Made by a program: the position numbers and the translations under genes
Source: an uncultured Acidobacteriota bacterium
Lineage (GTDB): Bacteria; Acidobacteriota; UBA6911; RPQK01; JAPXNP01
Assembly (NCBI GenBank): GCA_963777605.1
Contig: CAVZRV010000053.1
Span: 1 to 12,573, forward strand
Length of the DNA: 12,573 nt
Reading direction: 5' to 3'
Part shown: piece after piece, positions 1,943 through 12,573 of the stretch
Position numbering within the stretch: the first letter of the stretch is position 1
Layout: the number at the start of each line of letters is the position of its first letter
The notes under the pieces: generated by a model
Database searches by the model: none
What the model was told of the DNA's origin: nothing
What the model saw: only the letters and a program-made list of their open reading frames with translations

Positions 1943-1946
1943 ATCA

Positions 1947-1959
1947 AATCAACGGTTTA
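1947..1959 (+). promoter_or_regulatory. IHF-consensus site in the att arm
   Basis: AATCAACGGTTTA matches WATCAANNNNTTR exactly and lies between the core and the arm-type sites. Confidence 0.6.
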
Positions 1960-1999
1960 CAGACGGAAATTCCGATCGTGAGATAAGAAAGACGGCCTT

Positions 2000-2019
2000 G
2001 GGGTAACGCAGGGGGTAAC
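2000..2019 (+). repeat. Integrase arm-type binding sites (left arm)
   Basis: GGGGTAAC at 2000-2007 and 2012-2019. The same octamer is paired at 10617-10635. Confidence 0.8.
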
Positions 2020-2036
2020 TAAATTGGAGATGCTGC

Positions 2037-2919
2037 GTGGGAGCGAAGGCAAAGCAACACATCATTCCGGCCTGTTATCTCAGGCCTTGGTGTGATCCTG
2101 GAACCCCTATCGGATACGAGCCCTATATTTGGCTGATATCGCGTGACGGAACGCAGAAATCCAGACGGGCGCCGTCGAACAGTTTCACGGAAAACAACTT
2201 CTACACAGTCCGGCTTCAGGACGGCGAGCGCAACTCTCTCGATCGAGGATAGTCTCGGCGCGATCGAAGATGGGTATGCTCGAGCGATTGACAGGAAAGT
2301 CGTTCTGAGGGAGCACCTCTCCGACATGGATCGTGCTTATCTATGCAGTTTCGTGGCTGCAATGTCGGCGAGAACGAAGCGTCAGGAAAACAATCTTGGC
2401 GGGTTCATTAAGCAAATCAGGAGGCTTGTTGAAAGTAACGAAAGACAATTCGGTGTTGTGTCTGCCATTGGTGAAGTACTTGAGGGGCCTTCATAGTGCT
2501 GAGCATGAATTTCTCTTGGCGACGGTTATGGAGATCCAGCCTCCCATTTTGTTTGGAATGGATTTGGCGGTTCTTGTCTGCAATGATCCGTTGGGATTCA
2601 TTACGTCAGACGAGCCTTGTGTATGGTTTAACCCCGAACTGTACAGCCTGACCCATTCTACCGGAGCCCCGGTCTTGGTCAGCGTGCCATAGAAGTCACT
2701 TTACCCGTCACTCCAACGATGATGCTTCTTTTCAACCGGAAGGGACTTCGTGGCTACAAGGTCATTCGATCTGATGTCGTGGATGAATTGAACCGGCGGA
2801 CGCGCGCTCATTGCTTGGATCGCTTTGTCAGTTGGAAGGGCGAAACGAAATCGGTCTGGTTTCAAATGGGGGTTCCTTCAGCCGACGCATGGGAAAACCG
2901 ACGCCCCGATCAGAAGTGA
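2037..2919 (+). CDS. DUF4238-domain protein, split by ~3 apparent frameshifts (near 2233, 2465, 2650)
   Basis: Joining frames gives QHIIPACYLRPW...FTENNFY...IEDSLGAIE...FITSDEPC...EVTLPVTPTMMLLF...VDELNRRT, the characteristic DUF4238 motifs. RBS GGAG precedes GTG 2037. Confidence 0.8.
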
Positions 2920-3234
2920 CGTAATTGGAGCGGATTCGGCCCGTCCAACCCATCAATGAGGAGAGAGCTGTCGACTCGGCGCGCCCAAGAACACGGAAGG
3001 TTACCTCCTTCTCGCGGCCCTCATGCGGTCCCGAGCCTGCTCTCAGGGCTCAGGTCATCGTGGCCACCTCAGCGACCCGTAGAGCCTCTAATATTCCCGC
3101 CATGAATTATGGAGTGCAAAATGGGGGGCGTAATCACATCACAGTCCAGAGGCGACTCCAGTTGGCAAGCTCGCGAGTCGCCCTTGCTCCATTAGGTTCA
3201 GCATTGCCTTTTTTTCGATACCGCCCTGATTGGC

Positions 3235-4053
3235 TTACCCAACTTTTTGAAGGGATCGAAACACTGCCAAGGGATGTTATTCCAAATTCATCCGTGCCAC
3301 GACCAAGAAATTCCTGGATTTGATCCGCCATAGTGGCGAACACCAGAGTTGGTTCATTCAGTGACGGGTAGTCGCAGTCTGGAGGGTCCAGGCACTGCAT
3401 CGATAAGTGCCAGAAGTGCGCCATACTCCCTGTAGAAAGGCTCCGTGCCCAAGCGCCAAAGCCGCTGACGGCATTGCGGATCCAATCAGGTCGGGATTGT
3501 CCCCCACAGTTGTGCATCCTCAAACCGGCAACGGATCTGAAGGCCCACAGGTATGATTTTGTAGAGCGCCTGAACAAAGCTCTTGATATTATCTGCTCGA
3601 CCTGCTTCCGACCTTGCTTCTTTTGTGTCCGAGTGTCCGTCTCGCCGACTAGCGCGTCAGTCGGGAAAGTCTCCATAAACTCGTGTAGGTTGGAAGCATC
3701 GAAAACCGAAATTGTCACAGGAAGAAGAACGGTACAGCCAACTTCTGCCGCTACCAGGTCTTTTCGCACCCATCCTTGTTGCTGGAGCATCACAATCGTG
3801 TCGATGATCCGTACATCATGGGGCTTAGCTCTTCTCCGCCCTGGATTCTCCAGACGAACTGGCTCCTTCATAATTGCCGGAAACAGATGTCAACGGAACC
3901 CTTAAGCGTTTTTGAGGTTGTCTTGTCTGACTCGAACGTATCCGATAGCCCGGTCAGGAGCGCACCAAAGAGTTGCGCTGAAAGTGACGCAATTCTTAAT
4001 TCGTCGACGTATAGGAAGTCATACAATTTCGCCGGAGGTTCGTCTTGAGCCAC
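3235..4053 (-). CDS. Hypothetical prophage/island cargo protein (DUF6414-like N-terminus), several apparent frameshifts
   Basis: LYDFLYVDELRIASLSAQL N-terminus. Frame-switching gives ...PHDVRIIDTI...LALGHGAFLQGVW...IDAVP...FLGRGTDEFGITS/LAVFRSLQKVG* (TAA 3235-3237). Merges ORF-track entries 3868..4053 and 3134..3871. Confidence 0.55.
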
Positions 4054-4234
4054 GTTTCATGCGCTCCTTCAGTTCAGACTGTTCTTTCTCAATCTCTGCG
4101 GCATGTTGATTCAAACTTTCTAGAATTGCCTGCACGGCAGCCGATAGCTCTCGACCTCCATTCCGAATTGCGTCTGATGCTTCGGACGATGTCTCGAGAA
4201 TAATCCTTGTAAACTCGTCCATACTCTGCTTCAT
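4019..4234 (-). CDS. Small helical/coiled-coil hypothetical protein overlapping the start of the downstream gene
   Basis: 71 aa, AGGA RBS-like sequence upstream, amphipathic helices, 35-nt overlap with the gene starting at 4053. Confidence 0.65.
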   Translation of the reverse strand: MKQSMDEFTRIILETSSEASDAIRNGGRELSAAVQAILESLNQHAAEIEKEQSELKERMKRGSRRTSGEIV

Positions 4235-4336
4235 CGCTTGATCATCCTAACACTTCTGAGAATCCAATCAACTCGTGTCTGATGGATCGTGATCCGTGGT
4301 GAGCCGCAGAACGGCGCCCTCCCGCCCTAGTTCCTG

Positions 4337-4522
4337 CTAGACTTCTCTATGACCCTTCTCCAAGTTTCGCGGAAGCTCGCGGTAGCTTAGCATGTACTCC
4401 TCCGCCGCCTGCTGCTGCTCGGGAGAGTCCCAAGAGTCGCCCAAATAGGTCACTCCGACAAACTTGCTGTGTAACTCGTGATCGGTCCATTGCTGCTTCT
4501 GAGTCTTCTTTCTGTCACGCAT
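4337..4522 (-). CDS. Hypothetical protein, last gene of the capsid/packaging operon
   Basis: RBS AAGGAG upstream. The start overlaps the end of the terS-like gene. Confidence 0.6.
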   Translation of the reverse strand: MRDRKKTQKQQWTDHELHSKFVGVTYLGDSWDSPEQQQAAEEYMLSYRELPRNLEKGHREV

Positions 4523-4736
4523 CGTTTTCTCCTTTCGGGAACGCCAGCTCTTTGATGAGCAGGCGAAACTCCCGCATGTTGCCGGTTTCGATCTTCGCCG
4601 CCGGGTGCGCCTTTCCGTCCAGGATTAAGCCGTCGCGCTCGATCAACTTTCGGGTCGAGAGCACCCGATCAAGCGCTCGCGCAGCCAGGTCCAGGATTTC
4701 CGCCTCGTGCTCGTCCAGATCCCAGCGTTTCAGCAT
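4515..4736 (-). CDS. terS: Terminase small subunit-like protein (P27-family-like); N-terminus probably extends upstream via a frameshift
   Basis: WDLDEHEAEILDLAARALDR...IERDGL...HPAAKIE....REFRLLIKEL matches the helical 'i..dG....HPa..iE.....f.rll.eL' pattern of small terminases of HK97-like phages. It lies downstream of the capsid gene. Confidence 0.65.
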   Translation of the reverse strand: MLKRWDLDEHEAEILDLAARALDRVLSTRKLIERDGLILDGKAHPAAKIETGNMREFRLLIKELAFPKGENDA

Positions 4737-4947
4737 CTGTGCCGCCAGGATTCGGCCTCTTCATGGATTCCGAGGTCTTTCCCCGGTTTACCGGCCGTGA
4801 TGCAGCCTTCTCCCTGGGTTTGGCCCCGTTTTTAACTCGCCGGCGCTCGTTTCTGGCCTTCCAGCCGCATTGCTGGGAGCAATACCGCCTGGGCGAGCCG
4901 TGCCGCCCTGGCTGAATTTCAATTCCGCATACCTCACAGTTCATCAC
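4669..4947 (-). CDS. Zinc-finger protein (CxxC...YCSxxC), possibly the N-terminal part of the TerS-like protein
   Basis: RBS GAGGAG 7 nt before GTG 4947. Sequence CEVCG...PRRYCSQQCGWKARNERRR. Confidence 0.6.
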   Translation of the reverse strand: MMNCEVCGIEIQPGRHGSPRRYCSQQCGWKARNERRRVKNGAKPREKAASRPVNRGKTSESMKRPNPGGTDAETLGSGRARGGNPGPGCASA

Positions 4948-5133
4948 GCCAAAACTCCTCGACACGACTATCTACAAGCATCGTTGGCCACAAAACGGTT
5001 TCGTGTTCTCACCCGGGTAAGATGAAGACCACGCCCCGGGGGTGTTCCGGGAGGGGGGCCAGCCCAGTGAGTAACCGGCCCCAACTCCCTCTTGCTCCTG
5101 CACGAGTGGAAACCAGCCTCGGCAGGCGCTGCG

Positions 5134-5172
5134 TGACCATCCCGGGGGGAAAGGCATTCCCCGGGCTGGTCA
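5134..5172 (-). terminator. GC-rich stem-loop just after the capsid stop codon (stabiliser or weak terminator; no U-tract)
   Basis: TGACCA/TGGTCA (5134-5139/5167-5172) and CCCGGGG/CCCCGGG (5141-5147/5159-5165). Confidence 0.5.
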
Positions 5173-5176
5173 AGGA

Positions 5177-6358
5177 TTAGAGCGGGCTCGCGCCGCTGAA
5201 GCTTCCCGTTACGAAGCCAGACGCACTGTAAATCGCCAACCCGACGCGACTTTCGCACAAAATGGTCGCGACGTTTTCGACGAAATTGTCACCGTGCTCG
5301 AAGGAGATCATTACGCGAGTCGGCGTCCGGTCCAGGATCTCCGCACGATCCCGGCAGCCGACCAGAAACGTTCCGGCCGTAACTCCCGTGGTTCGCACAG
5401 TTTGAAGCCAGAAGTCTCCGCCGTCCCGCGTGGAGATCGGCATAAGATAACCGCCGGCGTTGTCGGCCTGGTCTTTCAGGCCGCGAATCTGCCAGAAGTC
5501 TTGAGGATTCAGCGCGATAAACGTAGGCCGTTCGTCGATTTCCTCCAACTGTGAACAGGCGTGACGCAGATAGTCGAGGCGCGTGTCGCCAGACTGGATC
5601 CTGCCCGTGTCGAACGAAGTAGCCGCAGTCACCAGCCCTTCCAAATGAACGCCGGTCCCGCTTCCCGTCAACATTTCGGCCTGTTCCTTCGCTGCTACCG
5701 CGAGGAGGAGATCTACGTCGAGAATCCGACGGAAGTAGGGGATGTCTTCCAGAGCTTGGCGCGTCACGGAGAGATACACGGCCACCGTCGCGATCGCACT
5801 CGCCACCGCTGTCCAGGTCGAGGTTGTTTCGAATTTCCCGGATCCTTCAACCTGCGGTGAGGCGGCCGCTTTGGCGGTCTGCTTCATGAAATGGAATTGC
5901 CCTGATTCGACAGGCCGACTCGGCAGGACCAGGCGTAACACGTTCCAGGGCCACGCCATCGGTCCGAGGAAACCGCCCTGCTGTGCCGGCATGATTCCGG
6001 GTGAACCGTAGCCCAGGCCGTCGCTCGTGATCGTCGAAAGTGACGAAGACGGCCTGAAGAGCTGCCCCTGCACTTCGAAGATCGACTTGCCGTGGTTCGC
6101 GAGAAGCTCGAGTCCTTCGTAATTGCTTGTGATCTGGGCGCCGATCGTGTCCCTCGCCCCGTAGCTGTCGATCGACTCGCCCGGTTCATAGCTCTTGTTC
6201 CAAGCCTCGTTGCTCACCTTCGCGGCCGCTTCAGCGGTTGATTTTGCCTGGGCCGCTTCCTCTTTTACGACGGCCAGCTCGCTTTTCATTCGCCCAAGTT
6301 CCGGTCGCGGATCATAAAAAGATTGTGTACTCATTTTTAACTCATTCTTTCCCGCCAC
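5177..6358 (-). CDS. HK97-family major capsid protein with N-terminal coiled-coil (delta-domain-like); start may be ATG 6334
   Basis: Motifs VEGSGKFE, IATVAVYLSVTRQALEDIP, MLTGSGTGVHLEGL, LNPQDFWQIRGLKD..GGYL, AGTFLVG, DNFVENVATILCESRVGLAIY..GFVTG. Confidence 0.93.
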   Translation of the reverse strand: MAGKNELKMSTQSFYDPRPELGRMKSELAVVKEEAAQAKSTAEAAAKVSNEAWNKSYEPGESIDSYGARDTIGAQITSNYEGLELLANHGKSIFEVQGQLFRPSSSLSTITSDGLGYGSPGIMPAQQGGFLGPMAWPWNVLRLVLPSRPVESGQFHFMKQTAKAAASPQVEGSGKFETTSTWTAVASAIATVAVYLSVTRQALEDIPYFRRILDVDLLLAVAAKEQAEMLTGSGTGVHLEGLVTAATSFDTGRIQSGDTRLDYLRHACSQLEEIDERPTFIALNPQDFWQIRGLKDQADNAGGYLMPISTRDGGDFWLQTVRTTGVTAGTFLVGCRDRAEILDRTPTRVMISFEHGDNFVENVATILCESRVGLAIYSASGFVTGSFSGASPL

Positions 6359-6576
6359 TTTTTGGCGAAATCGTAGCCGTTTGCTTTCGGCTTTTCAGTT
6401 TCGTTTTCTCTTTGCGGGGGTCGCTGCACGGTGCTGATAGCCTCGCTGATTTCTTCCTGGCTGAACCCTCGATCGACGAGGAAAAGTGCTTGCAGCTTTG
6501 GATTCAGTCCCGCGTATCGGCCTGCACAAAGCTCCTTGCAACTCTGCACGTTAAATGCGCTTTCGCTGGTTCTCAT
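6337..6576 (-). CDS. Hypothetical protein immediately upstream of the capsid gene
   Basis: RBS GAGGAGG before MRTSESAF (ATG ~6576). It abuts or overlaps the capsid start. Confidence 0.55.
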   Translation of the reverse strand: MRTSESAFNVQSCKELCAGRYAGLNPKLQALFLVDRGFSQEEISEAISTVQRPPQRENETEKPKANGYDFAKKWRERMS

Positions 6577-6686
6577 TCGAACCTCCTCTAGACATAGTTC
6601 TGTTACTTGGGAATTGAAGGCCGGAGGGGAGGCAAGGCCAAGAGCCAAAGCTGTCGGCGATTGCGTCTTTAATGGCGTTCCATACT

Positions 6687-6719
6687 ATTATACGAAATTT
6701 GAGTGACATCTGTTTCACT
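6687..6719 (-). promoter_or_regulatory. Candidate capsid-operon promoter with a palindromic operator or activator site
   Basis: Perfect -10 TATAAT on the minus strand (6687-6692), no consensus -35. AGTGA-N8-TCACT at 6702-6719 in an AT-rich intergenic region. Confidence 0.5.
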
Positions 6720-6740
6720 ATTTCTAATTGAGCCCTTGCA

Positions 6741-6983
6741 TCATGTCTTTGCCCCGGAAGGAGGATTCAGACCGAGTGTTTTCGCGATGAGGTGGAGAAT
6801 TTCGTCCTGATTGTTCTCCCGATTAACCTGGACGTCCGCCCGACGTTCCAGCACCGCGATCCGGCTTTCGAGTGCCATCATGGTCGCTCCGCAGGCCCGG
6901 AGGACATCGTTTTGTTTCTTGAGTGTTTCTGACATTTCGTTCATGAGTTCAATGCTTGTTTTCGATTCGTTCTTCTCGCTCAT
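6741..6983 (-). CDS. Small coiled-coil hypothetical protein
   Basis: ATGA overlap with the upstream gene, RBS GGAGG, heptad-like MMALESRIAVLERR. Confidence 0.7.
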   Translation of the reverse strand: MSEKNESKTSIELMNEMSETLKKQNDVLRACGATMMALESRIAVLERRADVQVNRENNQDEILHLIAKTLGLNPPSGAKT

Positions 6984-7426
6984 CTGTCGCTCCTCCAGTT
7001 CGTCCTCGTTGATTCTCTTCGATGCGTTGCTCGTTCGTGTCTTCTTTGCACTCTTCGTGTGATTTCTTCATCTAGCCATTCAAGTAGACTTGCCGGGTTG
7101 ATACCTTCTTCAACCGCTCGCCCGGTGATCTCCTCCAGTCGCCTTTTGAACAGCGTTCGTTGATACTGTTCCAAGTTCATCACCCATCGTCGCAGAATCC
7201 CGAGGATGGCCCCTCCGGATTCCGGGCCGAATGTTAGTATTCCGTCATCAAGTACAAGTCGATGTACTTGGCCGAATTCGAGAATGATCTCTCGTTCGAA
7301 CACAGCCAATACAGACGGGCAACCCGTCACCGACAATTCAACTTGGAGGTGGTCGGAATCGGCAAGTACTGCCTCGAGGCCGAGTCGTTCCAGGGCGTGG
7401 ATGATGTTATCCATTAATTGCTTCAT
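6980..7426 (-). CDS. Hypothetical protein
   Basis: ATGA-coupled to the PC4 gene upstream and to 6741..6983 downstream. Confidence 0.65.
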   Translation of the reverse strand: MKQLMDNIIHALERLGLEAVLADSDHLQVELSVTGCPSVLAVFEREIILEFGQVHRLVLDDGILTFGPESGGAILGILRRWVMNLEQYQRTLFKRRLEEITGRAVEEGINPASLLEWLDEEITRRVQRRHERATHRRESTRTNWRSDR

Positions 7427-7644
7427 GACTTGCCCACCTCGGTCAGCATCGCCTCCGCAACCTGTTGAGCCAGGTCAGGACTGAGGCACAAGCCCTTTTT
7501 GGTCGGCTTCCATTGGCCCTCGTCGGTTTCAAAATAGACGCGGGCATCCAGGTACTTCCGGCCCCGGTACTCGGTCAGCCCGATGCGGATCACTTCGCCG
7601 GCACCTTTTTCCAGTTCGATGCAGGTGTTTCTGTCGGCGCTCAT
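7423..7644 (-). CDS. PC4/p15 (YdbC-like) ssDNA-binding protein
   Basis: IRIGLTEYRGRKYLDARVYFETDEGQWKPTKKGLCL is the PC4 signature (e+rG..y.D.R.y.....G.w.PTkKG+.l). Confidence 0.92.
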   Translation of the reverse strand: MSADRNTCIELEKGAGEVIRIGLTEYRGRKYLDARVYFETDEGQWKPTKKGLCLSPDLAQQVAEAMLTEVGKS

Positions 7645-7706
7645 TTCAGCATCGATGGATTCTTTGAGATTGCAGTTTGCGTTTGTTCATCGCGGTTCGC
7701 CTTCAT
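7641..7706 (-). CDS. 21-aa leader ORF translationally coupled to the PC4 gene (or its frameshifted N-terminus)
   Basis: GGAGGTAGG RBS, then MKANRDEQTQTAISKNPSMLK*, whose TGA overlaps the PC4 ATG (ATGA). Confidence 0.4.
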   Translation of the reverse strand: MKANRDEQTQTAISKNPSMLK

Positions 7707-7916
7707 CTAGTCCTACCTCCGTGATAGAATTCCTATCGGTGTAGTAGGAAAAACCTTTTTGCAGTAGAGCGGGCCGGGACCGTTCATCCTGGCGCGCCGT
7801 CGTCCTGCTTCCTCCCAGTGGGGGTCATCCCGGGAGAAACTCTGAATCCAAAGATCGCTTTTGCGGTTTCAAGTCGTTCGCGTAAGTCCGTACCAGCGCA
7901 AGCTTTTTCATAGCAG

Positions 7917-7972
7917 ATGTTGGTTAGTTGGTTTCTTGGTTGCCTGGTAACCTGGTTTGTCGGTGAATTGGT
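7917..7972. repeat. Seven tandem degenerate 8-bp units (nnnYYGGT), candidate origin iterons
   Basis: atgttggt tagttggt ttcttggt tgcctggt aacctggt ttgtcggt gaattggt, with exact 8-bp period. Confidence 0.75.
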
Positions 7973-8393
7973 CATCCCGCCAACCTCTTCAAGACTGTCT
8001 CCACCAGGGAATAGGCGGGCTCGGTCTTCGACGTGACTACCTTGCAGCGGTACATCTTCCCGGTGAACATCGACGGTCGGATCATGTGGACCGGGATTCT
8101 GTGGTTTGCAACTGCGGCCATCTTTGCCAACTTTGACCGCAATGGGGCTTTCTTCCATCCGTACCGGACAAAGCAGGGAAGCACGATGCCTTCGAGGTTC
8201 CCAGGATCGTATATTCGGAACTTCAGGACCAGGCGTTGGGCCTTCTTCTCCCCAAACTGCGGGCAATGGATCTTCGTCACCGAGATGCACATCGCATCGA
8301 CCATTTTCACGTCGAGCCGGGAGGAACATCCTCGGACACGCAAAGGACTTCCTCGGGGCCCTCCTGGAGCTTTCGATCCGGGTCTGCGCTCAC
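7972..8393 (-). CDS. Hypothetical protein, possibly OB-fold/DUF669-like replication accessory; one apparent frameshift near 8325
   Basis: GTG 8393 directly follows the alpA stop. VSADPDRKLQEGPEEVLCVSEDVP joins RLDVKMVDAMC...LVLKFRIYD...SKLAK...FTGKMYRCKVVT...YSLVETVLKRLAG. Beta-rich pattern; the fold call is tentative. Confidence 0.55.
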
Positions 8394-8607
8394 CTACTGC
8401 CCCGCCTCAACCGTCGGCCGAGCTTCGAGCCACCGCTCCACTTCGTTGGAAAGCCACCCGACCAGGCCGGGGGCGATCTGCCGGCGAGCGGGTATGATTC
8501 CTTCCTTTTCGTAGCGGTAAAGCGAGGTTCGCGAACGGACGCCGACTGATCCTGCACATCTCGTTCGGGCGGATTACATGGGGTGTTTTCGGTTCAGCGT
8601 TTTCCAT
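8394..8607 (-). CDS. alpA: AlpA-family regulator/excisionase (one apparent frameshift near 8547)
   Basis: MENAEPKTPHVIRPNEMCRI plus the +1 frame VGVRSRTSLYRYEKEGIIPARRQIAPGLVGWLSNEVERWLEARPTVEAGQ* gives the classic AlpA pattern (SR..LYR..K.G..P...I....VGWL..EV..WL). Confidence 0.88.
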
Positions 8608-8613
8608 TTGCGC

Positions 8614-8632
8614 AGCATAGCACCATATGGTG
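8614..8632 (-). promoter_or_regulatory. Extended -10 promoter for a probably leaderless alpA mRNA, overlapped by a perfect 12-bp palindrome
   Basis: TG-C-TATGCT lies 6 nt before the ATG with no SD. CACCATATGGTG at 8621-8632. Confidence 0.55.
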
Positions 8633-8675
8633 AAAACGCTTTATTTGCAGATGTTTACAGACTTTTATGAGGCTT

Positions 8676-9351
8676 TTATACTGCGGTAGAATGCGGGTTT
8701 TCGGCGATTTTCGGGACCGGTCGAGAGGGCTTATATACCTTGTTGAGCATCACGCGCCAGTTTCTCATGGCGTTCCGGATGATCTTCTCCACCTCCGGGG
8801 CGATCCGTTCCGGGTCGTTGGGATCCGCTGGCAGATAGCGTTTTAGTTCTCGAATCAGTCTCCCGCGGGTGTCGGCGCCCCAGCCTGAGAGCTTGAGCCG
8901 GCCATGCATCGGCAATTAGAACGTCCACCAGGTATCGCCTGTACTTTCCGGCGGTTTTCGCCTCGATGAACCCGGTCGCCTCGTTGAACCGGAGGCCCTG
9001 CTCTTGGAGGCGGTCCAGGATCGCTTGGCCGAGTTGGTAAATTTCGATGAGCCGCTGGTATGTCCGCTGCATCCGAAATTCCAGATCCCCGTGGCCCATG
9101 GTGTCGTCGAAGTCGTAACGGTGGAGGATCCCACTCACCGTTCCCAATGACTCCCTCAGCCGCTCAATGTCGGCGCCCAGGCGATGCGGTGGGAACTGGC
9201 GGAGGAACACTTGCGGGTACAGCGGGTGGTCCTCCCGGAACTGAAACACCAGCCCGTGAGGGCTCTCGGGGAACAGGTCGCGGAGCGCAGCGCCAGGGGC
9301 GTCCATGTCCGCCTTCATTCGCTCCAATATTTCGCGGTCTTCATCGCTCAT
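8676..9351 (-). CDS. Hypothetical protein coupled to the integrase (ATGA overlap); probable frameshift near 8910
   Basis: MSDEDREILER... starts in the int stop codon after a GGAAAGGTGG RBS-like sequence. The C-terminus reads more protein-like in the 8676..8915 frame than in the frame ending at 8731. Confidence 0.6.
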
Positions 9352-10582
9352 CCGAACGCCACCACCTTTCCGCCTTCGCCCGTCAGGATCTGATTCAGTT
9401 TTGCAGACCATCGCTCAGCCGCTCGGCGTTTCTCGGAAAGCCGCTCCGACCTGTCATAAATTGCCGTTACACTCGCGTCCTGGCTCTTGTGATTCAGTAG
9501 CGCCCCGATGATGTAGCGCGAGACTCCGAGGTCGCCCATATGGGTTGCACAGGTACGTCTGAGCATATGCGGACCGAAACGGAACAGCGGTTCCGTTTTC
9601 GCCTTCTTTGCCCGTTCACGTTCCGTTGCGTTGATGCGTTTTGTCATGCTCTGTAGATACTTAACGTGCTTTCCTTCATCCAGCGCAAAAACCCACTCAT
9701 GCGCCCCGGTAATCCGTTCGAGATTGTCCAGGATGTCGATCGCGATGGGTGAGAGCGGGCAAGCATGCTCCCGTCCGTTTTTCGTGATCCACTCGGGCAG
9801 TTTCCATACTCGCTCTTTGCGGTCGATGTCCTGCCATCGCATCTTGCAGACTTCTCCTGGCCTCTGGCCGGTCACCAGGATCATTTTGAAAACCGATGCG
9901 GTCGGCTGCTCCCGGTTGTCGAGTTCGGCCCACAGCGCCTTAATCTGCTCGGCGTTGAGGTAATCTTTCTTTGGCTGTTCCTTGATGACTCGCTTCGTCC
10001 CTGCGACCGGGTTGTTCTCGACAATCTCGGCCTCGAATCCGATGTTGAACATCTTGGAGAGTAGACTCCTCACCCGGTTCGACTGGATCGGCCCGTTCTT
10101 GTCCGCGATGGTGTCGAGCAGGTCCACGACATCGCGCCTACGGATGTTCCTGGCTTTGATGTTCTGCCACGGCGGATAGACATATTTGTCGAGGATCCTC
10201 TGATCCTCCGCGATGCTGGCCGGCTTCTTATGTCTCTTGGCGTGTCGCCTCATGTAGTACTCGCCCAACTCCTTGACCGTCTTTGCCCGCCGGTGCTCCG
10301 TCTTCTGCTTCTGCGGGTCTTTCCCTTCAGCGGCCTTCTGGACGGCATCTCGGGCCGCGGTCGCGCCTTCTTGAGCTTCATAGCGGGATAGGTGCCGAGG
10401 GTCATTCTCCGGAGTCGATGTCGCCGGCCACCCGGTAGACACCACGAATGACTTGTGACCGGATCGAGTCACGCGGAGGCCAAATGAGCGACCCTGGAAT
10501 GATTCCTCCACACTTCCAGGCGGTCGCCTTCGGCCCTCTGATTTTTGATCAGAACGTCGGTCAACAGGGTAACTTTTGCCAT
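9348..10582 (-). CDS. int: P4-type tyrosine integrase with N-terminal arm-binding (Arm-DNA-bind_3/DUF4102-like) domain; ~4 apparent frameshifts in the first ~220 nt
   Basis: RBS GAGGAGG and ATG 10582. Reconstructed MAKVTLLTDVLIKNQRAEGDRLEVW/EESFQGRSFGLRVTRSGHKSFVV/YRVAG/RLRRMTLGTYPAMKLKKAR. Catalytic motifs TGQRPGE (R), TKNG (K), HMLRRT (HxxR), LNH (H) and AIYDR (Y) are intact. Confidence 0.95.
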
Positions 10583-10616
10583 CTCAAACCTCCTCACTCG
10601 GCCCTCTGACTTTTTC

Positions 10617-10635
10617 GGGGTAACATCGGGGTAAC
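10617..10635 (+). repeat. Integrase arm-type binding sites (right arm)
   Basis: GGGGTAAC at 10617-10624 and 10628-10635. Variants AGGGTAAC at 10566-10573 and GGGGTAAG at 10702-10709. Confidence 0.8.
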
Positions 10636-10768
10636 AAAATCCTCGATGTTAGAATTAGAACACGATGGTACGACAAGGCACAATGCAATGTTGAAAACAC
10701 AGGGGTAAGCGTCCATATTCAGCGGGTGCAGTGAACAGGCTGGAACAGCATGAAACGGGGTTTTGGAG

Positions 10769-10814
10769 ACTTTTAATCAGAGGGCCGTTGGTTCGAATCC
10801 AACACGACCCACCA
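10769..10814 (+). repeat. Right att site: 3' half of tRNA-Lys(TTT)
   Basis: Exact 46-bp copy of 1897-1942. No 5' tRNA half upstream. Confidence 0.95.
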
Positions 10815-10898
10815 TCCCCATCGATCTGCCCTTGATTTGTCGACACGCCCCGGCGGCCTATGACACGGAAAGCGCTGGGTTCGGCCGGAGACTCAGGG

Positions 10899-10904
10899 TA
10901 TAAT
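10899..10904 (+). promoter_or_regulatory. -10 element for the riboswitch-led transcript
   Basis: Perfect TATAAT 14 nt upstream of riboswitch P1. No clear -35. Confidence 0.55.
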
Positions 10905-10918
10905 TGACTTCGTAACAA

Positions 10919-11033
10919 GCATCAGGAAGCCCCGCTTGGGCGGGGCGCCAACCGGGGAGGGAGATCCCACGGTGGTGGGTTCCGAGGATTCGGAACCGAT
11001 GCGCGAAGGACGCACCTTCGAATGAAGTCTCCC
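10919..11033 (+). ncRNA. SAM-I/IV variant riboswitch aptamer
   Basis: P1 GCAUC/GAUGC (10919-23/10998-11002); J1/2 AGGAA; P2 GCCCCGC/GCGGGGC; P3 GCC-AA-CCG.GGGA/UCCC.CGG-U-GGU with the SAM-pocket AA/U internal loop; P4 GGUUCCGA/UCGGAACC; P5 CGAAGG/CCUUCG; PK-2 between L3 GGGAGA (10959-64) and UCUCCC (11028-33). Confidence 0.85.
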
Positions 11034-11084
11034 GGGAGCGCCTTGAAGAGAGGCCTCCGGAAAACTTCCTGCCGAGTATCTCCC

Positions 11085-11112
11085 GCCGTCGCCGGTGCGA
11101 CGGCTTTTGTTT
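11085..11112 (+). terminator. Intrinsic terminator (riboswitch expression platform)
   Basis: GCCGTCGC-CGGT-GCGACGGC followed by TTTTGTTT, upstream of the ATG at 11155. Confidence 0.85.
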
Positions 11113-11154
11113 GTCCGGTTCCCCTGATGCGTTTTCGAAAGAAGGAGACGCAGC

Positions 11155-11373
11155 ATGGAAAACAGTGAACTGGCGGTCCGGATCGACCCGTCGAACCCCA
11201 ATCACCACCTCTGGAACAACCACGGCACCTGGTGGATCCACTACACGGTCTACCCCAATCTCTGGTCGGCCGAGCGCATCCGCCGATCGCTCAAAACCCG
11301 CTCTCTGGAGGAGGCCCGCCGCCTCCGTGATCGGCACTTCACCACACTGTCAAAACTCGGAAACATTTCATAG
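11155..11373 (+). CDS. Small conserved-looking hypothetical protein, possibly a three-stranded beta-sheet/helix nucleic-acid-binding domain
   Basis: RBS AAGGAG. NPNHHLWNNHGTWWIHYT...RIRRSLKTRSLEEARRLRD resembles integrase-arm/AP2-like 'W...y......r.rrSL.T.....A...RD' domains. Confidence 0.8.
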   Translation: MENSELAVRIDPSNPNHHLWNNHGTWWIHYTVYPNLWSAERIRRSLKTRSLEEARRLRDRHFTTLSKLGNIS

Positions 11374-11382
11374 GGGGCCGTC

Positions 11383-12177
11383 ATGCAGCAACAGATCAGC
11401 CTGTGTCGAGTCTGGTCGAACGTCCGGGAGAACCGGGCTGCCTTGATTGAACGGGCCGTTGTGCTCGAAACCGATGTCCGAGTCTTCTGGGAAGACCCGC
11501 AGGGTTCGCAGAGCCTCCACCAGTTGGAGGGATTCACCGGGGATCTGGCCCGCGTCACGGAGACGTTTCAGCGACATGGGTTCACCCGGTGGATCTACGA
11601 AAGCCGCCTTCGCCGGATCGTCTTCCTGTCGGTTCCGGAACAGGAAAATGCGGGGTTCAAGCTTCTGGCCGAACTCACGGGCATTGCCGAAATCGGCTTC
11701 AAGCTCGAGTCCAGAAGTGTCCGGGAGGAACGCCTCAATCCGTTGGCTCGCGAAATCTACCTGCACGAGGCCGAACGGCCTCCCGAATCGGACGGCGACA
11801 CCGAACCGGTCGAGGGTTGGGGATTCCTCGTCCCCTGGTCGCCGGAGCGCCGCGAAGCGGTCCTGGTCGGCCGGGAAGAACTGATCGAAAGCCTGAAACG
11901 GCTGACCGGGATCTGGGAACAGAAAACCGGTCGCCGGGCGACACCGGAGGAGTGGAGCGTACATCACCGCTTCCTTGCGGCGACCGGCTTTCCACAGGTT
12001 GTCTTCGAGTTACCAGCCGGTGCCGAGCTGGAACAATGCTGGCAGTTTCGCGGCGAGGGCGAACCGGACCTGGTCGTCTCGCTCTATCGGGTCAAGGCCC
12101 CCGCGGTTCCCCCGCTCCGCCTCCTCCACGCAGCCCTGGGGATCGAAGTAGAACAAGTGCCCGCACTCGTCTCGTAA
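11383..12177 (+). CDS. Hypothetical protein, 264 aa, likely co-transcribed with 11155..11373
   Basis: 9-nt gap after the upstream gene, AGGGGG RBS, GC3-rich codon usage. No family recognised. Confidence 0.75.
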   Translation: MQQQISLCRVWSNVRENRAALIERAVVLETDVRVFWEDPQGSQSLHQLEGFTGDLARVTETFQRHGFTRWIYESRLRRIVFLSVPEQENAGFKLLAELTGIAEIGFKLESRSVREERLNPLAREIYLHEAERPPESDGDTEPVEGWGFLVPWSPERREAVLVGREELIESLKRLTGIWEQKTGRRATPEEWSVHHRFLAATGFPQVVFELPAGAELEQCWQFRGEGEPDLVVSLYRVKAPAVPPLRLLHAALGIEVEQVPALVS

Positions 12178-12219: not shown

Positions 12220-12401
12220 CGGTCTGCCGCCTGACACAGAGGCGGGGGTAAGGAACGCGCCCCCGCGTTCCCGGACCGGCAACCAGCATCGAGACCGGTA
12301 CCGAACCACGCACGCAGGCCCGGTGAGGGCCTGCCTCTGTGTGCTCGACAGCCGCCCGGTCTGGCACCCAAACACAGAGCCGGGGGCAAGGAACGCGCCC
12401 C
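12220..12401. repeat. Imperfect ~45-bp direct repeat with palindromic parts (REP/MITE-like)
   Basis: CGGTCTG...ACACAGAG.CGGGGG(T/C)AAGGAACGCGCCCC at 12220-12264 and 12357-12401. Hairpin GGAACGCG-CCCC-CGCGTTCC at 12252-12271. Inverted CCTCTGTGT lies between the copies. Confidence 0.6.
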
Positions 12402-12573
12402 GGGGTTGGATCTTGGCACGTGTTCATGTCCTCGGTATCCAGGTTGTTTTTCGCATGTCGGCGCTGACAGAATTCGTTCGGGTGAGTGAGTGTCCTGTTT
12501 CATCTTCTGCAATGCCACTGCGAAGCGAAAGATCCTGCACGATGTGAATGAGATCGGTCAGCCCGAGTCGGAG

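Follow-up and report, generated by a model that had tools for sequence, protein, structure and literature searches.

A putative SAM-I/IV riboswitch upstream of a gene for a predicted arm-type-domain protein in an uncultured Acidobacteriota bacterium

Introduction

Feedback control of sulfur, methionine and SAM genes is the textbook role of SAM riboswitches. Riboswitches are also known to act on regulators, as with the Listeria SAM riboswitch SreA on prfA mRNA and a B12 riboswitch that controls an EutV-sequestering sRNA. PMC6890682 describes SAM-I as carrying a kink-turn and the pseudoknot PK-1 in P2 while having neither P5 nor PK-2, and describes SAM-IV as being without P4. A single P2 helix with no kink-turn or PK-1 is a SAM-I/IV trait in PMC2864571 and PMC6890682, and the latter source places nucleotides of AUC, GA, CAAC, UG and A within 5 Å of SAM.

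Here, we analyze a 12,573-nt stretch of DNA (the window) from an uncultured Acidobacteriota bacterium, in which an earlier note had recognized a SAM-I/IV riboswitch ahead of two genes. We consider it likely that the locus holds a functional SAM-I/IV riboswitch that acts as an OFF switch, with a DNA-binding-like first product, on a horizontally acquired cassette at an att junction.

Results

A predicted SAM-I/IV-class aptamer

All of the SAM-I/IV helices and the pseudoknot PK-2 that the earlier note had listed are present, at the following positions.

10914–11036, + strand: predicted SAM-I/IV-class aptamer (RF01725 alignment, R1 model, MFE fold, covariation)
10919–10923/10998–11002, + strand: P1, GCAUC/GAUGC (MFE fold of 10918–11036 alone)
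10929–10935/10940–10946, + strand: P2, a single 7-bp helix with a UUGG loop (MFE fold)
10947–10976, + strand: P3 (MFE fold of 10918–11036)
10978–10985/10990–10997, + strand: P4, 8 bp (MFE fold)
11004–11009/11015–11020, + strand: P5 (MFE fold of 10918–11036)
10959–10964 with 11028–11033, + strand: PK-2, L3 GGGAGA with UCUCCC (sequence complementarity)

RF01725 (SAM-I-IV) aligns to 10914–11036 of the forward strand over model positions 1–99 of 99 (35.8 bits, E 0.0015, cmscan with E-value reporting), and R1, a covariance model built from 12 Opitutaceae sequences with the window excluded, scores the RNA over its full length at 53.4 bits (E 8.6e-10). The four-way junction P1-P2-P3-P4 appears in the cmscan alignment, in the MFE fold, and in the R1 alignment with its covariation. 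The conserved core consists of AUC..GA in P1/J1-2, CAACC...GGUG in P3, and GAUG closing P1. P2 is a plain helix with no internal loop, kink-turn or PK-1, and both the P5 hairpin 3′ of P1 and the PK-2 pseudoknot between L3 and the 3′ tail are there. By our own mapping, every nucleotide that PMC6890682 assigns to the SAM pocket is found in the window RNA.

A cmscan search had been proposed as a check on the class, and it bore this out in part: SAM-I-IV aligned over its full length and was retained as the best family by Rfam clan competition, but the 35.8 bits do not reach the RF01725 gathering score of 41.1, which is an operational cut-off and no structural feature. The deficit comes from insertion penalties in P4, P5 and L3 of the Rfam alignment. 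At gathering thresholds, Rfam reported no SAM family in the window or in 20 homologue loci; since full-length sub-threshold matches and custom-model matches exist, we do not take these scans as absence. The window aptamer is the sole RF01725 match at E ≤ 1 in the 6.7-Mb genome (among the 150 of 218 candidates that were scored), and RF00162 (SAM-I) has no match in the genome at E ≤ 0.01 among the 150 of 632 candidates scored.

The relatives of the RNA show how its helices have been conserved. Across 71 distinct relatives, 92.6% of the paired cells can pair, compared with 35–44% when the partners are slid, and double changes occur in 24 of the 35 pairs; the covarying positions include all pairs of P2, P4 and P5, as well as upper P3. 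The C-G pair in CCAACC/GGUGG had been read as a G-C to C-G covariation, and this reading does not hold, because the pair is C-G in all 70 rows with letters there (of 71 distinct rows) and is the Rfam consensus, differing only from SAM-I and from the crystallized SAM-I/IV RNA (PMC5393176). For PK-2, the complement between a relative's own loop and tail averages 5.6 nt versus 4.1 nt for mismatched loop-tail pairs (58 distinct relatives), a modest margin because the tails are common among the relatives. These analyses used the covariance-model alignment, as MAFFT with RNAalifold on 27 aptamers aligned poorly in the variable hairpins and recovered just P1, part of P2, and P3. RF01725 scores of the relatives run from 29 to 56.5 bits, and none of 16 R1-positive relatives (loci L002–L021) reaches the gathering score. 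A large SAM-I/IV group falls below the Rfam threshold, and comparative covariation together with architecture leads us to assign the RNA at 10914–11036 to the SAM-I/IV class of aptamers.

The RNA is paired with a small gene, and SAM is its probable ligand

The RNA recognized by R1 lies directly 5′ of a homologue of the first downstream gene, which encodes a 72-aa protein (P0001), in 73 of 80 fetched loci. R1 matches 74 of 81 sources, and every R1 match is on the same strand as the small gene and immediately 5′ of it. The pairing also holds for 9 of 11 matches in an evenly spread phylum sample; at three Lentisphaerae homologue loci (L004, L021 and L023), the R1 search found no RNA. It had been asked whether homologues of the 72-aa protein consistently sit behind SAM riboswitches or near met genes: the first is borne out by the 73 loci, but there are no Met or SAM genes near any of the 80 homologues, whose neighbors are unrelated housekeeping genes. 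A methionine- or SAM-pathway function, which had been offered as one explanation, has no positive evidence on its side. The RNA-gene unit points instead to an unrecognized SAM-controlled function other than that of a metabolic enzyme, and the other explanation put forward, a SAM-responsive regulatory module, may be plausible.

We infer that the aptamer would bind SAM, an assignment supported by a related RNA that directly precedes metK in one genome, G113 (R1 41.5 bits, RF01725 39.7 bits). Alternatively, the SAM-I/IV scaffold might sense SAH, a SAM derivative or an unrelated metabolite, and this would explain its association with a nonmetabolic gene. Odd gene associations first drew attention to variant subclasses in other riboswitch classes, and the association here is atypical in that Met/SAM genes are missing from the surroundings of the 80 homologues. 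The whole clade also lies under the Rfam cut-off, at 29–36 bits, and marine Opitutales have a longer and divergent J1/2, with AUCCAUAGA in place of AUCAGGA. However, the mapped pocket nucleotides of the window all agree with the consensus, the core pairs do not vary in 70 of 70 rows, the relative that precedes metK scores closely, and the insertions in P4, P5 and L3 account for the low score. We regard a change of ligand as unlikely and proceed with SAM as the inferred ligand.

A role for P0001 as a regulator of metK was considered and rejected: among 30 Opitutales metK loci, none has the riboswitch and 2 have the TATGACA word described below. A palindromic operator-like motif is present at 17 of these 30 loci (counted by eye), and it would belong to another factor, since 13 of the 17 genomes with the motif have no P0001 match. 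One concrete regulon test of the regulatory-module idea failed in this way, in that the operator-like motif at metK does not follow the small gene.

A leader with a possible OFF switch

The leader between the promoter region and the first gene contains the following elements.

10899–10904, + strand: TATAAT, a −10-like hexamer lying 14 nt ahead of P1, without a good −35 box (read from the sequence)
11085–11114, + strand: intrinsic-terminator-like hairpin (11085–11104; 8 bp, 7 of them G-C, loop CGGU), then TTTTGTTTGT (terminator search)
11123–11130, + strand: CCUGAUGC, the exact complement of GCAUCAGG (P1 5′ strand plus J1/2, 10919–10926), a candidate switching strand (whole-leader MFE)
11128–11152, + strand: hairpin UGCGUUUUC/GGAGACGCA, which buries part of the Shine-Dalgarno sequence GAAGGAG at 11141–11147 (predicted fold)

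The TATAAT hexamer is kept in homologue locus L002 and does not appear in the promoter-scan output. The hairpin at 11085–11104 is G+C-rich and is followed by the U-run of TTTTGTTTGT, as in Rho-independent terminators, and the number of terminator-like hairpins in this region of the window equals the shuffle expectation. The hairpin is present in every predicted fold and is kept in L002, where the arms of the Shine-Dalgarno hairpin are identical as well. Of 69 distinct leaders, 29 carry a terminator-like hairpin, and a stretch complementary to the P1 5′ strand over at least 7 nt occurs in 40; in 22, this stretch falls inside the terminator.

In the whole-leader MFE, the 11123–11130 strand pairs with 10919–10926; this helix shares just 3 nt with the Shine-Dalgarno hairpin, a shortened form of which is still present in the same fold. 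The sole alternative fold that touches the terminator is isoenergetic (−82.6 versus −82.5 kcal/mol), and the fold predictions offered no antiterminator in the window leader beyond this one. The terminator's presence in every fold, the isoenergetic alternative and the small overlap count against a switch in this particular leader. On the side of a switch are the long-range pairing, the Shine-Dalgarno hairpin and the counts across leaders, and we tentatively propose OFF-switch logic. Bound SAM would lock P1, so that the terminator and the Shine-Dalgarno-burying hairpin would win and the two-gene operon would be silent. At low SAM, the P1 5′ strand would be released and could pair with the candidate switching strand, and this pairing would invade the foot of the Shine-Dalgarno hairpin and allow the genes to be expressed.

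The first gene product is a stand-alone relative of integrase arm-type domains

The two open reading frames that had been described downstream of the riboswitch are confirmed.

11155–11373, + strand: P0001, a 72-aa basic protein, predicted stand-alone arm-type (DUF6538-like) homologue (ORF, profile matches, AF2)
11383–12177, + strand: P0002, 264 aa, in the same orientation, with its start 10 nt beyond the P0001 stop codon (ORF)

Both proteins were said to be uncharacterized, and neither has a family above cut-off in Pfam, NCBIfam, PHROG or PADLOC. The suggested resemblance of the 72-aa protein to integrase arm-type domains stands on several findings. Of 66 family members, 60 match Pfam DUF6538 at E ≤ 0.01, the best of them at 8.4e-07; P0001 itself is at 19.2 bits (E 0.00099), below the 27-bit cut-off. 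The P0001 family profile matches the N termini of two Phage_integrase proteins, and in the Atlas, the closest clusters that bear a name are Integrase_DNA and Arm-DNA-bind_1. The AF2 model of P0001 has three strands and a helix. A structural comparison had been recommended for both proteins. The P0001 model has a pLDDT of 78.7, but Foldseek gave no match for it at E ≤ 0.001 in PDB (best 0.52) or BFVD (best 0.053), so that support for an arm-type domain from the fold is weak; the P0002 model has a pLDDT of 35.4. A PDB sequence-profile search with P0001 returned nothing significant, and the host genome has no DUF6538 match at E ≤ 0.01.

The P0001 family is large and well conserved. We found 730 small homologues; clustering the family at 50% identity gives 998 clusters, and the 150 best are all between 69 and 155 aa long. 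Its invariant core is NHHLWNN..GTW..HY, the invariant peptide is encoded by varying codons, and P0001 retains all 20 family-invariant residues while standing alone, with no recombinase domain. These profile matches indicate that the family is related to the N-terminal arm-type domains of integrases, and P0001 most likely binds DNA sequence-specifically. P0002 has only two homologues (61% and 50% identity in alignment) and no usable Atlas match.

A conserved word upstream of the promoter

One further conserved element precedes the TATAAT hexamer.

10859–10866, + strand: conserved word TATGACAC (consensus YTTATGACACR), 53 nt 5′ of the aptamer, a candidate protein-binding site (exact match)

In 48 of 71 loci, compared with 2% of background windows, the 7-mer occurs in one or the other orientation 51–95 nt ahead of the aptamer. 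We rejected an upstream ORF, as the peptide is unconserved and a stop follows after two codons in some loci, and a −35 box, as the orientation is reversed in 13 of the 48 cases. Nor is the word enriched as a regulon word: YTATGACACR has 10 matches versus 7 in the control in the complete genome G041, where several of the matches are ordinary start codons. Lying just upstream of the cassette's own promoter, the word could be a site for the 72-aa protein.

Position of the cassette at a tRNA-Lys att junction

The DNA that precedes the cassette includes a repeat.

10769–10814, + strand: att repeat, the 46-nt 3′ part of tRNA-Lys(UUU), with an identical copy at 1897–1942 (repeat comparison)

The cassette sits at this junction and adjoins an 8.8-kb integrated element, and it was therefore probably acquired horizontally. 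The same tRNA-Lys piece directly precedes the riboswitch in the relative genome G014, which is 84–89% identical to the window over 570 nt, with the aptamer helices, the terminator and the Shine-Dalgarno hairpin all intact. The P0001 gene is in 2 of 41 genomes including the host (that is, in 1 of its 40 relatives), and the family is patchy in Verrucomicrobiota, with 37 of 201 genomes in a phylum sample and 5 of 41 in an order sample. We conclude that the promoter region and riboswitch, together with the small gene, make up a self-contained cassette that probably moves between bacteria. The idea that the window contig is a binning contaminant is not supported: its tetranucleotides correlate with those of the genome at 0.941, a value that genomic chunks also show (13.7% of them lie lower), and its dispersed repeats and att piece are common to other contigs.

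A cassette in this position could instead be an inert passenger or relic of recombination at the tRNA-Lys att site, an integrase 5′ fragment with a decaying leader and no regulated function. It directly follows the att repeat, beside an element with an integrase that is split over two overlapping reading frames; host contig C10 carries a degenerate version of the 3′ portion of the leader, without aptamer (C10:10621–10771), and also joins the att piece to the downstream repeat with no cassette; and 39 of 40 relatives have no match to the window query. Decay of this kind is very unlikely, however, given that both ORFs are intact, that P0001 keeps its 20 invariant residues, that the structured leader elements are intact at 84–89% identity to G014, and that the stand-alone family is under obvious constraint, with 998 clusters and an invariant peptide written in varying codons. 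It is highly improbable, too, that site-specific recombination is the target of P0001, which as a free arm-type domain would compete with or assist integrases at arm sites, like a directionality factor, and so tie excision of mobile elements to the SAM level: despite the homology to integrase N-terminal domains, the att junction in both the window and G014, and a tRNA gene after the small gene in five marine loci, most Verrucomicrobial loci have housekeeping neighbors and no visible integrase or att repeat, and the element's own integrase bears a different arm domain, Arm-DNA-bind_3.

Discussion

The preferred reading is that of a functional SAM-I/IV OFF switch ahead of a protein that most likely binds DNA, on a cassette that probably reached the host genome horizontally. 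It would provide a way to approach, through a ligand, what an uncharacterized protein family of about 1000 clusters does, and a possible case of a riboswitch that feeds a DNA-level regulator or a mobile-DNA function on a cassette that crosses phyla. We found no paper on the association of a SAM riboswitch with the P0001 family, which the Weinberg 2010 supplements or Trausch 2014 may already list, and none on DUF6538.

A more speculative extension, which we think quite unlikely, is that the cassette is a portable SAM-depletion alarm, in which a collapse of SAM derepresses a small arm-type DNA-binding effector that acts on DNA. Such a collapse might come from methyl-donor starvation or from phage SAM-destroying enzymes that disarm SAM-dependent restriction, and the effector might target its own promoter, which the YTTATGACACR word marks, or else DNA that is mobile or invading. 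Such an alarm is in keeping with the lack of linkage to Met/SAM genes and with a distribution that is patchy and multi-copy and moves horizontally. If true, it would be a relay from riboswitch to DNA-binding protein, or a riboswitch-guarded module for defense or mobile-element control, instead of a metabolic feedback loop.

Compared by eye with the SAM-I/IV sequence printed in PMC5393176 and the description in PMC6890682, the window RNA has the same order of elements as SAM-I/IV (RF01725; env87 aptamer, PDB 4L81), namely, P1, unsplit P2, P3, P4, the P1 3′ strand, P5, an A-rich linker and PK-2, and the same AA bulge and CAACC/GGUG core in P3. It differs from the RF01725 model in its longer P4, its insertions in L3 and P5, and its score under the gathering cut-off. 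Below the AA bulge it has a C-G pair, in agreement with the Rfam consensus, where 4L81 has G-C (PMC5393176). Unlike in known SAM-I/IV riboswitches, the gene that it would regulate is no sulfur, methionine or SAM gene. With SAM-I (S-box, RF00162) and SAM-IV (RF00634), both in Rfam clan CL00012 with it, the RNA shares the ligand-pocket nucleotides and the P1/P3 core, but its plain 7-bp P2, P5 and PK-2 set it apart from SAM-I, and its 8-bp P4 (10978–10997) sets it apart from SAM-IV, a class that has PK-1.

Arm-type domains of tyrosine recombinases include lambda Int 1–64, the Tn916 Int N-domain and AP2-like domains. P0001 resembles them in a stretch of about 60 residues that is predicted to fold into a three-stranded sheet and then a helix, and in its sequence kinship to DUF6538 and to the N termini of two recombinases. 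In contrast to these domains, it has no core-binding or catalytic domain, is preceded by a riboswitch and carries a family-specific invariant N-terminal extension, NPNHHLWNN, and its family is chromosomal, with varied nonmobile contexts in Verrucomicrobiota. Finally, as with SreA and the EutV-sequestering sRNA, a metabolite-sensing RNA would stand upstream of a regulatory output in a relay, which is hypothetical here, and unlike in those two cases, that output would be a protein controlled in cis with a DNA-binding-like fold.

A SAM-I/IV aptamer ahead of the 72-aa gene

The earlier note read a SAM-I/IV riboswitch, with helices P1-P5 and pseudoknot PK-2, upstream of a 72-aa ORF (P0001; 11155-11373, plus strand). 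A scan of the window against Rfam at gathering thresholds reported no match. With E-value reporting, the Rfam SAM-I/IV model RF01725 aligns with 10914-11036 (plus strand) over all 99 model positions, but the score of 35.8 bits (E = 0.0015) is below the gathering score of 41.1. No other RF01725 match at E ≤ 1 was found in the 6.7-Mb genome, where 150 of 218 candidates were scored. Bits are lost at insertions between P3 and the P1 3′ strand, in loop L3, and in P5. The first insertion is not foreign to the class because SAM-I/IV has its P4 helix there; the excerpted text of PMC6890682 describes P4 as present, P2 as unsplit, and PK-1 as absent. Folded alone, 10918-11036 has a minimum free energy (MFE) structure that is exactly P1 to P5, and UCUCCC (11028-11033) is complementary to GGGAGA in L3 (10959-10964), so the claimed helices and pseudoknot are borne out. 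We conclude that the window adds a new member to the SAM-I/IV class, one whose clade largely escapes Rfam's threshold.

P0001 has 730 small homologues, and relatives were confirmed at at least 591 of at least 599 matched stretches in species-representative genomes; 80 loci with a homologue were fetched for comparison. By word search, CCAACC...GGTGG lies 170-260 nt ahead of the conserved peptide in 70 of these 80 loci and in the window. We then used our own covariance model (R1), which was trained on 12 Opitutaceae sequences with a hand-written structure and with the window left out. R1 matches 74 of 81 sources, including the window (53.4 bits, E = 8.6e-10), with one match each, in every case immediately 5′ of the gene and on the same strand; homologues of the small protein thus do sit behind this riboswitch, as the earlier note had proposed to check. 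Among the sources missed, three Lentisphaerae-titled loci (L004, L021, L023) have no motif, the contig begins too near the gene in L005 and L011, and L044 and L055 were not scored, though the motif is visible by eye. The homologues in the three Lentisphaerae-titled loci are 59-65% identical, with no riboswitch upstream.

Across the 71 distinct rows of the R1 alignment, 92.6% of cells pair, compared with 35-44% after sliding the partners by 1-3 columns. Double changes occur in 24 of 35 pairs, and every pair in P2, P4, and P5 covaries. The alignment was fitted to R1 itself and so favours the structure, but this bias is far too small to account for the slide control or for the number of pair types. 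Covariation of PK-2 is more modest than that of the helices, the mean complement between a loop and its own tail being 5.6 nt versus 4.1 nt for mismatched loop-tail pairs (58 distinct rows). The G-C to C-G change at the ends of the motif, previously taken as covariation, is the Rfam consensus and is C-G in 70 of 70 rows with letters there; it is a real difference from SAM-I and from the crystallised SAM-I/IV (4L81), but not evidence by itself.

Expression platform

The leader contains the following elements.

10919-10926, plus strand: GCAUCAGG, P1 5′ strand and joining strand J1/2, exact complement of CCUGAUGC
11085-11104, plus strand: strong terminator-like hairpin, then TTTTGTTTGT (terminator scan)
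11123-11130, plus strand: CCUGAUGC, paired with GCAUCAGG in the MFE structure of the whole leader
11128-11136 with 11144-11152, plus strand: hairpin UGCGUUUUC/GGAGACGCA, burying part of the Shine-Dalgarno (predicted fold)

The scan alone proves nothing for the terminator because shuffled sequence is expected to give as many such sites as the region has. In a set of 69 distinct leaders from relatives, a terminator-like hairpin occurs in 29, and a stretch of 7 nt or more complementary to the first 12 nucleotides of the aptamer in 40. This complement is inside the terminator in 22 leaders, which is the classic mutually exclusive design, and is present in 11 terminator-less leaders; in the Chthoniobacterales leaders read by eye, it adjoins the start codon. 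J1/2 AUCAAG occurs with partner CUUGAU and AUCAGG with CCUGAU, a pattern pointing to a switching helix that covaries between J1/2 and its partner. In the window, the complement follows the terminator and shares only 3 nt with the Shine-Dalgarno hairpin. Every predicted fold contains the terminator, and the one alternative structure involving it is isoenergetic. From the leader comparisons and the window folds, we therefore propose a SAM-OFF switch whose coupling we infer, with the translational arm better supported than the transcriptional one. The small protein would be made when SAM is low.

The ligand

The excerpted text of PMC6890682 places SAM-I nucleotides 6-8, 11-12, 44-47, 57-59, and 87 within 5 Å of SAM, and by our own mapping through the Rfam alignment the window has all of these (AUC, GA, CAAC, UG(G), and A). 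An R1 survey of an even phylum sample of 151 genomes, with strict filters and 23 candidates scored per genome, gave 11 matches in 10 genomes, 9 of them directly ahead of a P0001 homologue. The match in genome G113 (L109 485-599; R1 41.5 bits, RF01725 39.7 bits) is directly ahead of metK, assigned by three S-AdoMet synthetase domains, while that in G082 (L110 471-602) scores 56.5 bits with RF01725, above threshold, and precedes ORFs of 152 and 220 aa without a Pfam family. These two genomes, both with SAM-I/IV RNA, gave no small-protein match. In four of five Verrucomicrobial genomes, the single RF01725 match (29-33 bits) is the element ahead of the small gene, and in one Verrucomicrobial genome a canonical SAM-I riboswitch (72.7 bits) also precedes a PLP enzyme. 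The pocket nucleotides and the R1 survey argue in favour of SAM as the likely ligand.

The two encoded proteins

When 1.84 billion representatives were searched with a profile, 998 proteins matched at E ≤ 0.001, 756 of them at E ≤ 1e-10, and the P0001 family stands alone, as the best 150 of the 998 are all 69-155 aa. Twenty positions are invariant among 66 sequences, including N14, H17, H18, L19, W20, N22, G24, T25, W26, H29, and Y30, and the codons for the invariant peptide vary among loci (regex search). The resemblance to integrase-arm domains suggested earlier holds in sequence, where Pfam DUF6538 matches 60 of the 66 at E ≤ 0.01 (P0001, with 19.2 bits, falls short of the cut-off of 27) and the family profile weakly matches the first 10-70 residues of two Phage_integrase proteins of 439 and 457 aa. 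The fold gives weaker support. In the AlphaFold2 prediction from the 66-row alignment (mean pLDDT 78.7), strands lie at 19-22, 25-33, and 40-48 and a helix at 51-70, but neither fold search nor sequence profile found anything significant in the PDB. The nearest named clusters in the Atlas database, Integrase_DNA (0.90) and Arm-DNA-bind_1 (0.89), are leads only, and the BFVD fold search places integrases at ranks 10 and 15, with HNH endonucleases too, none at E ≤ 0.001. Together, these results suggest that the family is related to integrase N-terminal domains, with support from sequence and weak support from fold, and P0001 probably binds DNA.

The second ORF (P0002, 264 aa) starts 10 nt past the P0001 stop codon. 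Its description as an uncharacterised protein stands, with no family match in four libraries and no usable Atlas match; the structure model is unusable (pLDDT 35.4). It has only two homologues, at 61% and 50% identity, one of which adjoins a P0001 homologue on a contig of genome G014, and was found in none of the Verrucomicrobial loci. P0002 is a lineage-specific passenger without assigned function.

A conserved upstream word and the metK promoters

In 48 of 71 loci, TATGACA or its complement (consensus YTTATGACACR) occurs 51-95 nt ahead of the aptamer, compared with a background of 2% of windows.

10859-10866, 5′ of the aptamer: TATGACA-type word in the window (word search)

A genome-wide regulon word was rejected, there being no enrichment in genome G041, as were a conserved upstream ORF and a -35 box, the latter by the split in orientation (35 loci one way, 13 the other). 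We speculate that the word may be an operator for the small protein itself.

As a P0001 regulon, metK was rejected, with the riboswitch in 0 of 30 Opitutales metK loci (L111-L140). By eye, 17 of these 30 promoters have a palindromic operator-like motif, AC(A/G)(T/C)ATCAA..GAT(A/G)(T/C)GTTGAT(A/G)T, immediately upstream of a TTGC box; it was rejected as a P0001 operator, being independent of the small protein's presence.

Distribution and probable mobility

Just 1 of 40 host relatives has the gene. It is in 5 of 41 genomes of an order sample and in 37 of 201 genomes of a Verrucomicrobiota phylum sample, some with 2-5 copies; its distribution in Verrucomicrobiota is patchy. Neighbours vary by lineage (pntAB, an ACT-domain protein, dehydrogenases, DUF3500, tRNA), and the proposed link to methionine or SAM genes failed, none being found among the neighbours of the homologues.

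The window is a complete 12.6-kb contig with these features.

1897-1942 and 10769-10814, direct: att repeats, a 46-nt 3′ piece of tRNA-Lys(UUU), 100% identical
1943-10768: integrated element, 8.8 kb, between the att repeats
5177-6358, minus strand: phage capsid-family gene within the element
7423-7644, minus strand: phage-type transcriptional regulator within the element
9348-10597, minus strand: integrase, two overlapping frames

Given these integrase and phage-related genes, the element is satellite-like. Host contig C6 carries the intact tRNA-Lys gene. The integrase ORFs, of 42 aa (10469-10597) and 387 aa (9348-10511), are in different frames, an apparent frameshift or assembly error; the longer begins at position 19 of the Arm-DNA-bind_3 profile. 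CGGCCCTCTGA, the reverse complement of part of the att core TCAGAGGGCCG, occurs at 10531-10541 and 10599-10609 around the integrase start codon, and the two copies are candidate integrase-binding sites.

The cassette (promoter region, riboswitch, and P0001 gene) starts ~45 nt past the right att repeat. In G014, which is titled Acidobacteriota and belongs to the same family as the host, the same att piece is directly 5′ of the riboswitch, with 84% identity to the window over 570 nt. The att junction, patchy spread, and lineage-varying neighbours thus suggest that the cassette behaves as a self-contained accessory unit moving horizontally.

Host contig C10 carries a second att piece (5922-5988; L084 1423-1489) with the same 3′ flank, joined directly to the downstream dispersed repeat without the cassette. 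Some 4.6 kb beyond it is a degenerate copy of the 3′ part of the leader, 78% identical (C10:10621-10771; L084 6122-6272), spanning the P4 3′ strand to CCUGAUGCG without the aptamer 5′ half, and the ORF just before this copy resembles an O-methyltransferase by eye alone. In the window, a dispersed repeat of ~100 nt at 12220-12269 and 12306-12407 has dozens of genome copies, with arrays on C28. The first 300 nt of the window contig are also on C12 (99%) and C35 (91%), which is probably why the contig breaks. Both its composition and its shared repeats speak for this contig being part of the host genome.

Comparison with known SAM-I/IV riboswitches

The 96-nt crystallised SAM-I/IV sequence, as printed in the excerpted text of PMC5393176, has by eye the same element order as the window: P1, P2, P3, P4, P1 3′ strand, P5, A-rich linker, and PK-2 strand. 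What is new is the obligate partner of the SAM-I/IV RNA, a small arm-type-like protein that stands alone and is carried on a portable cassette.
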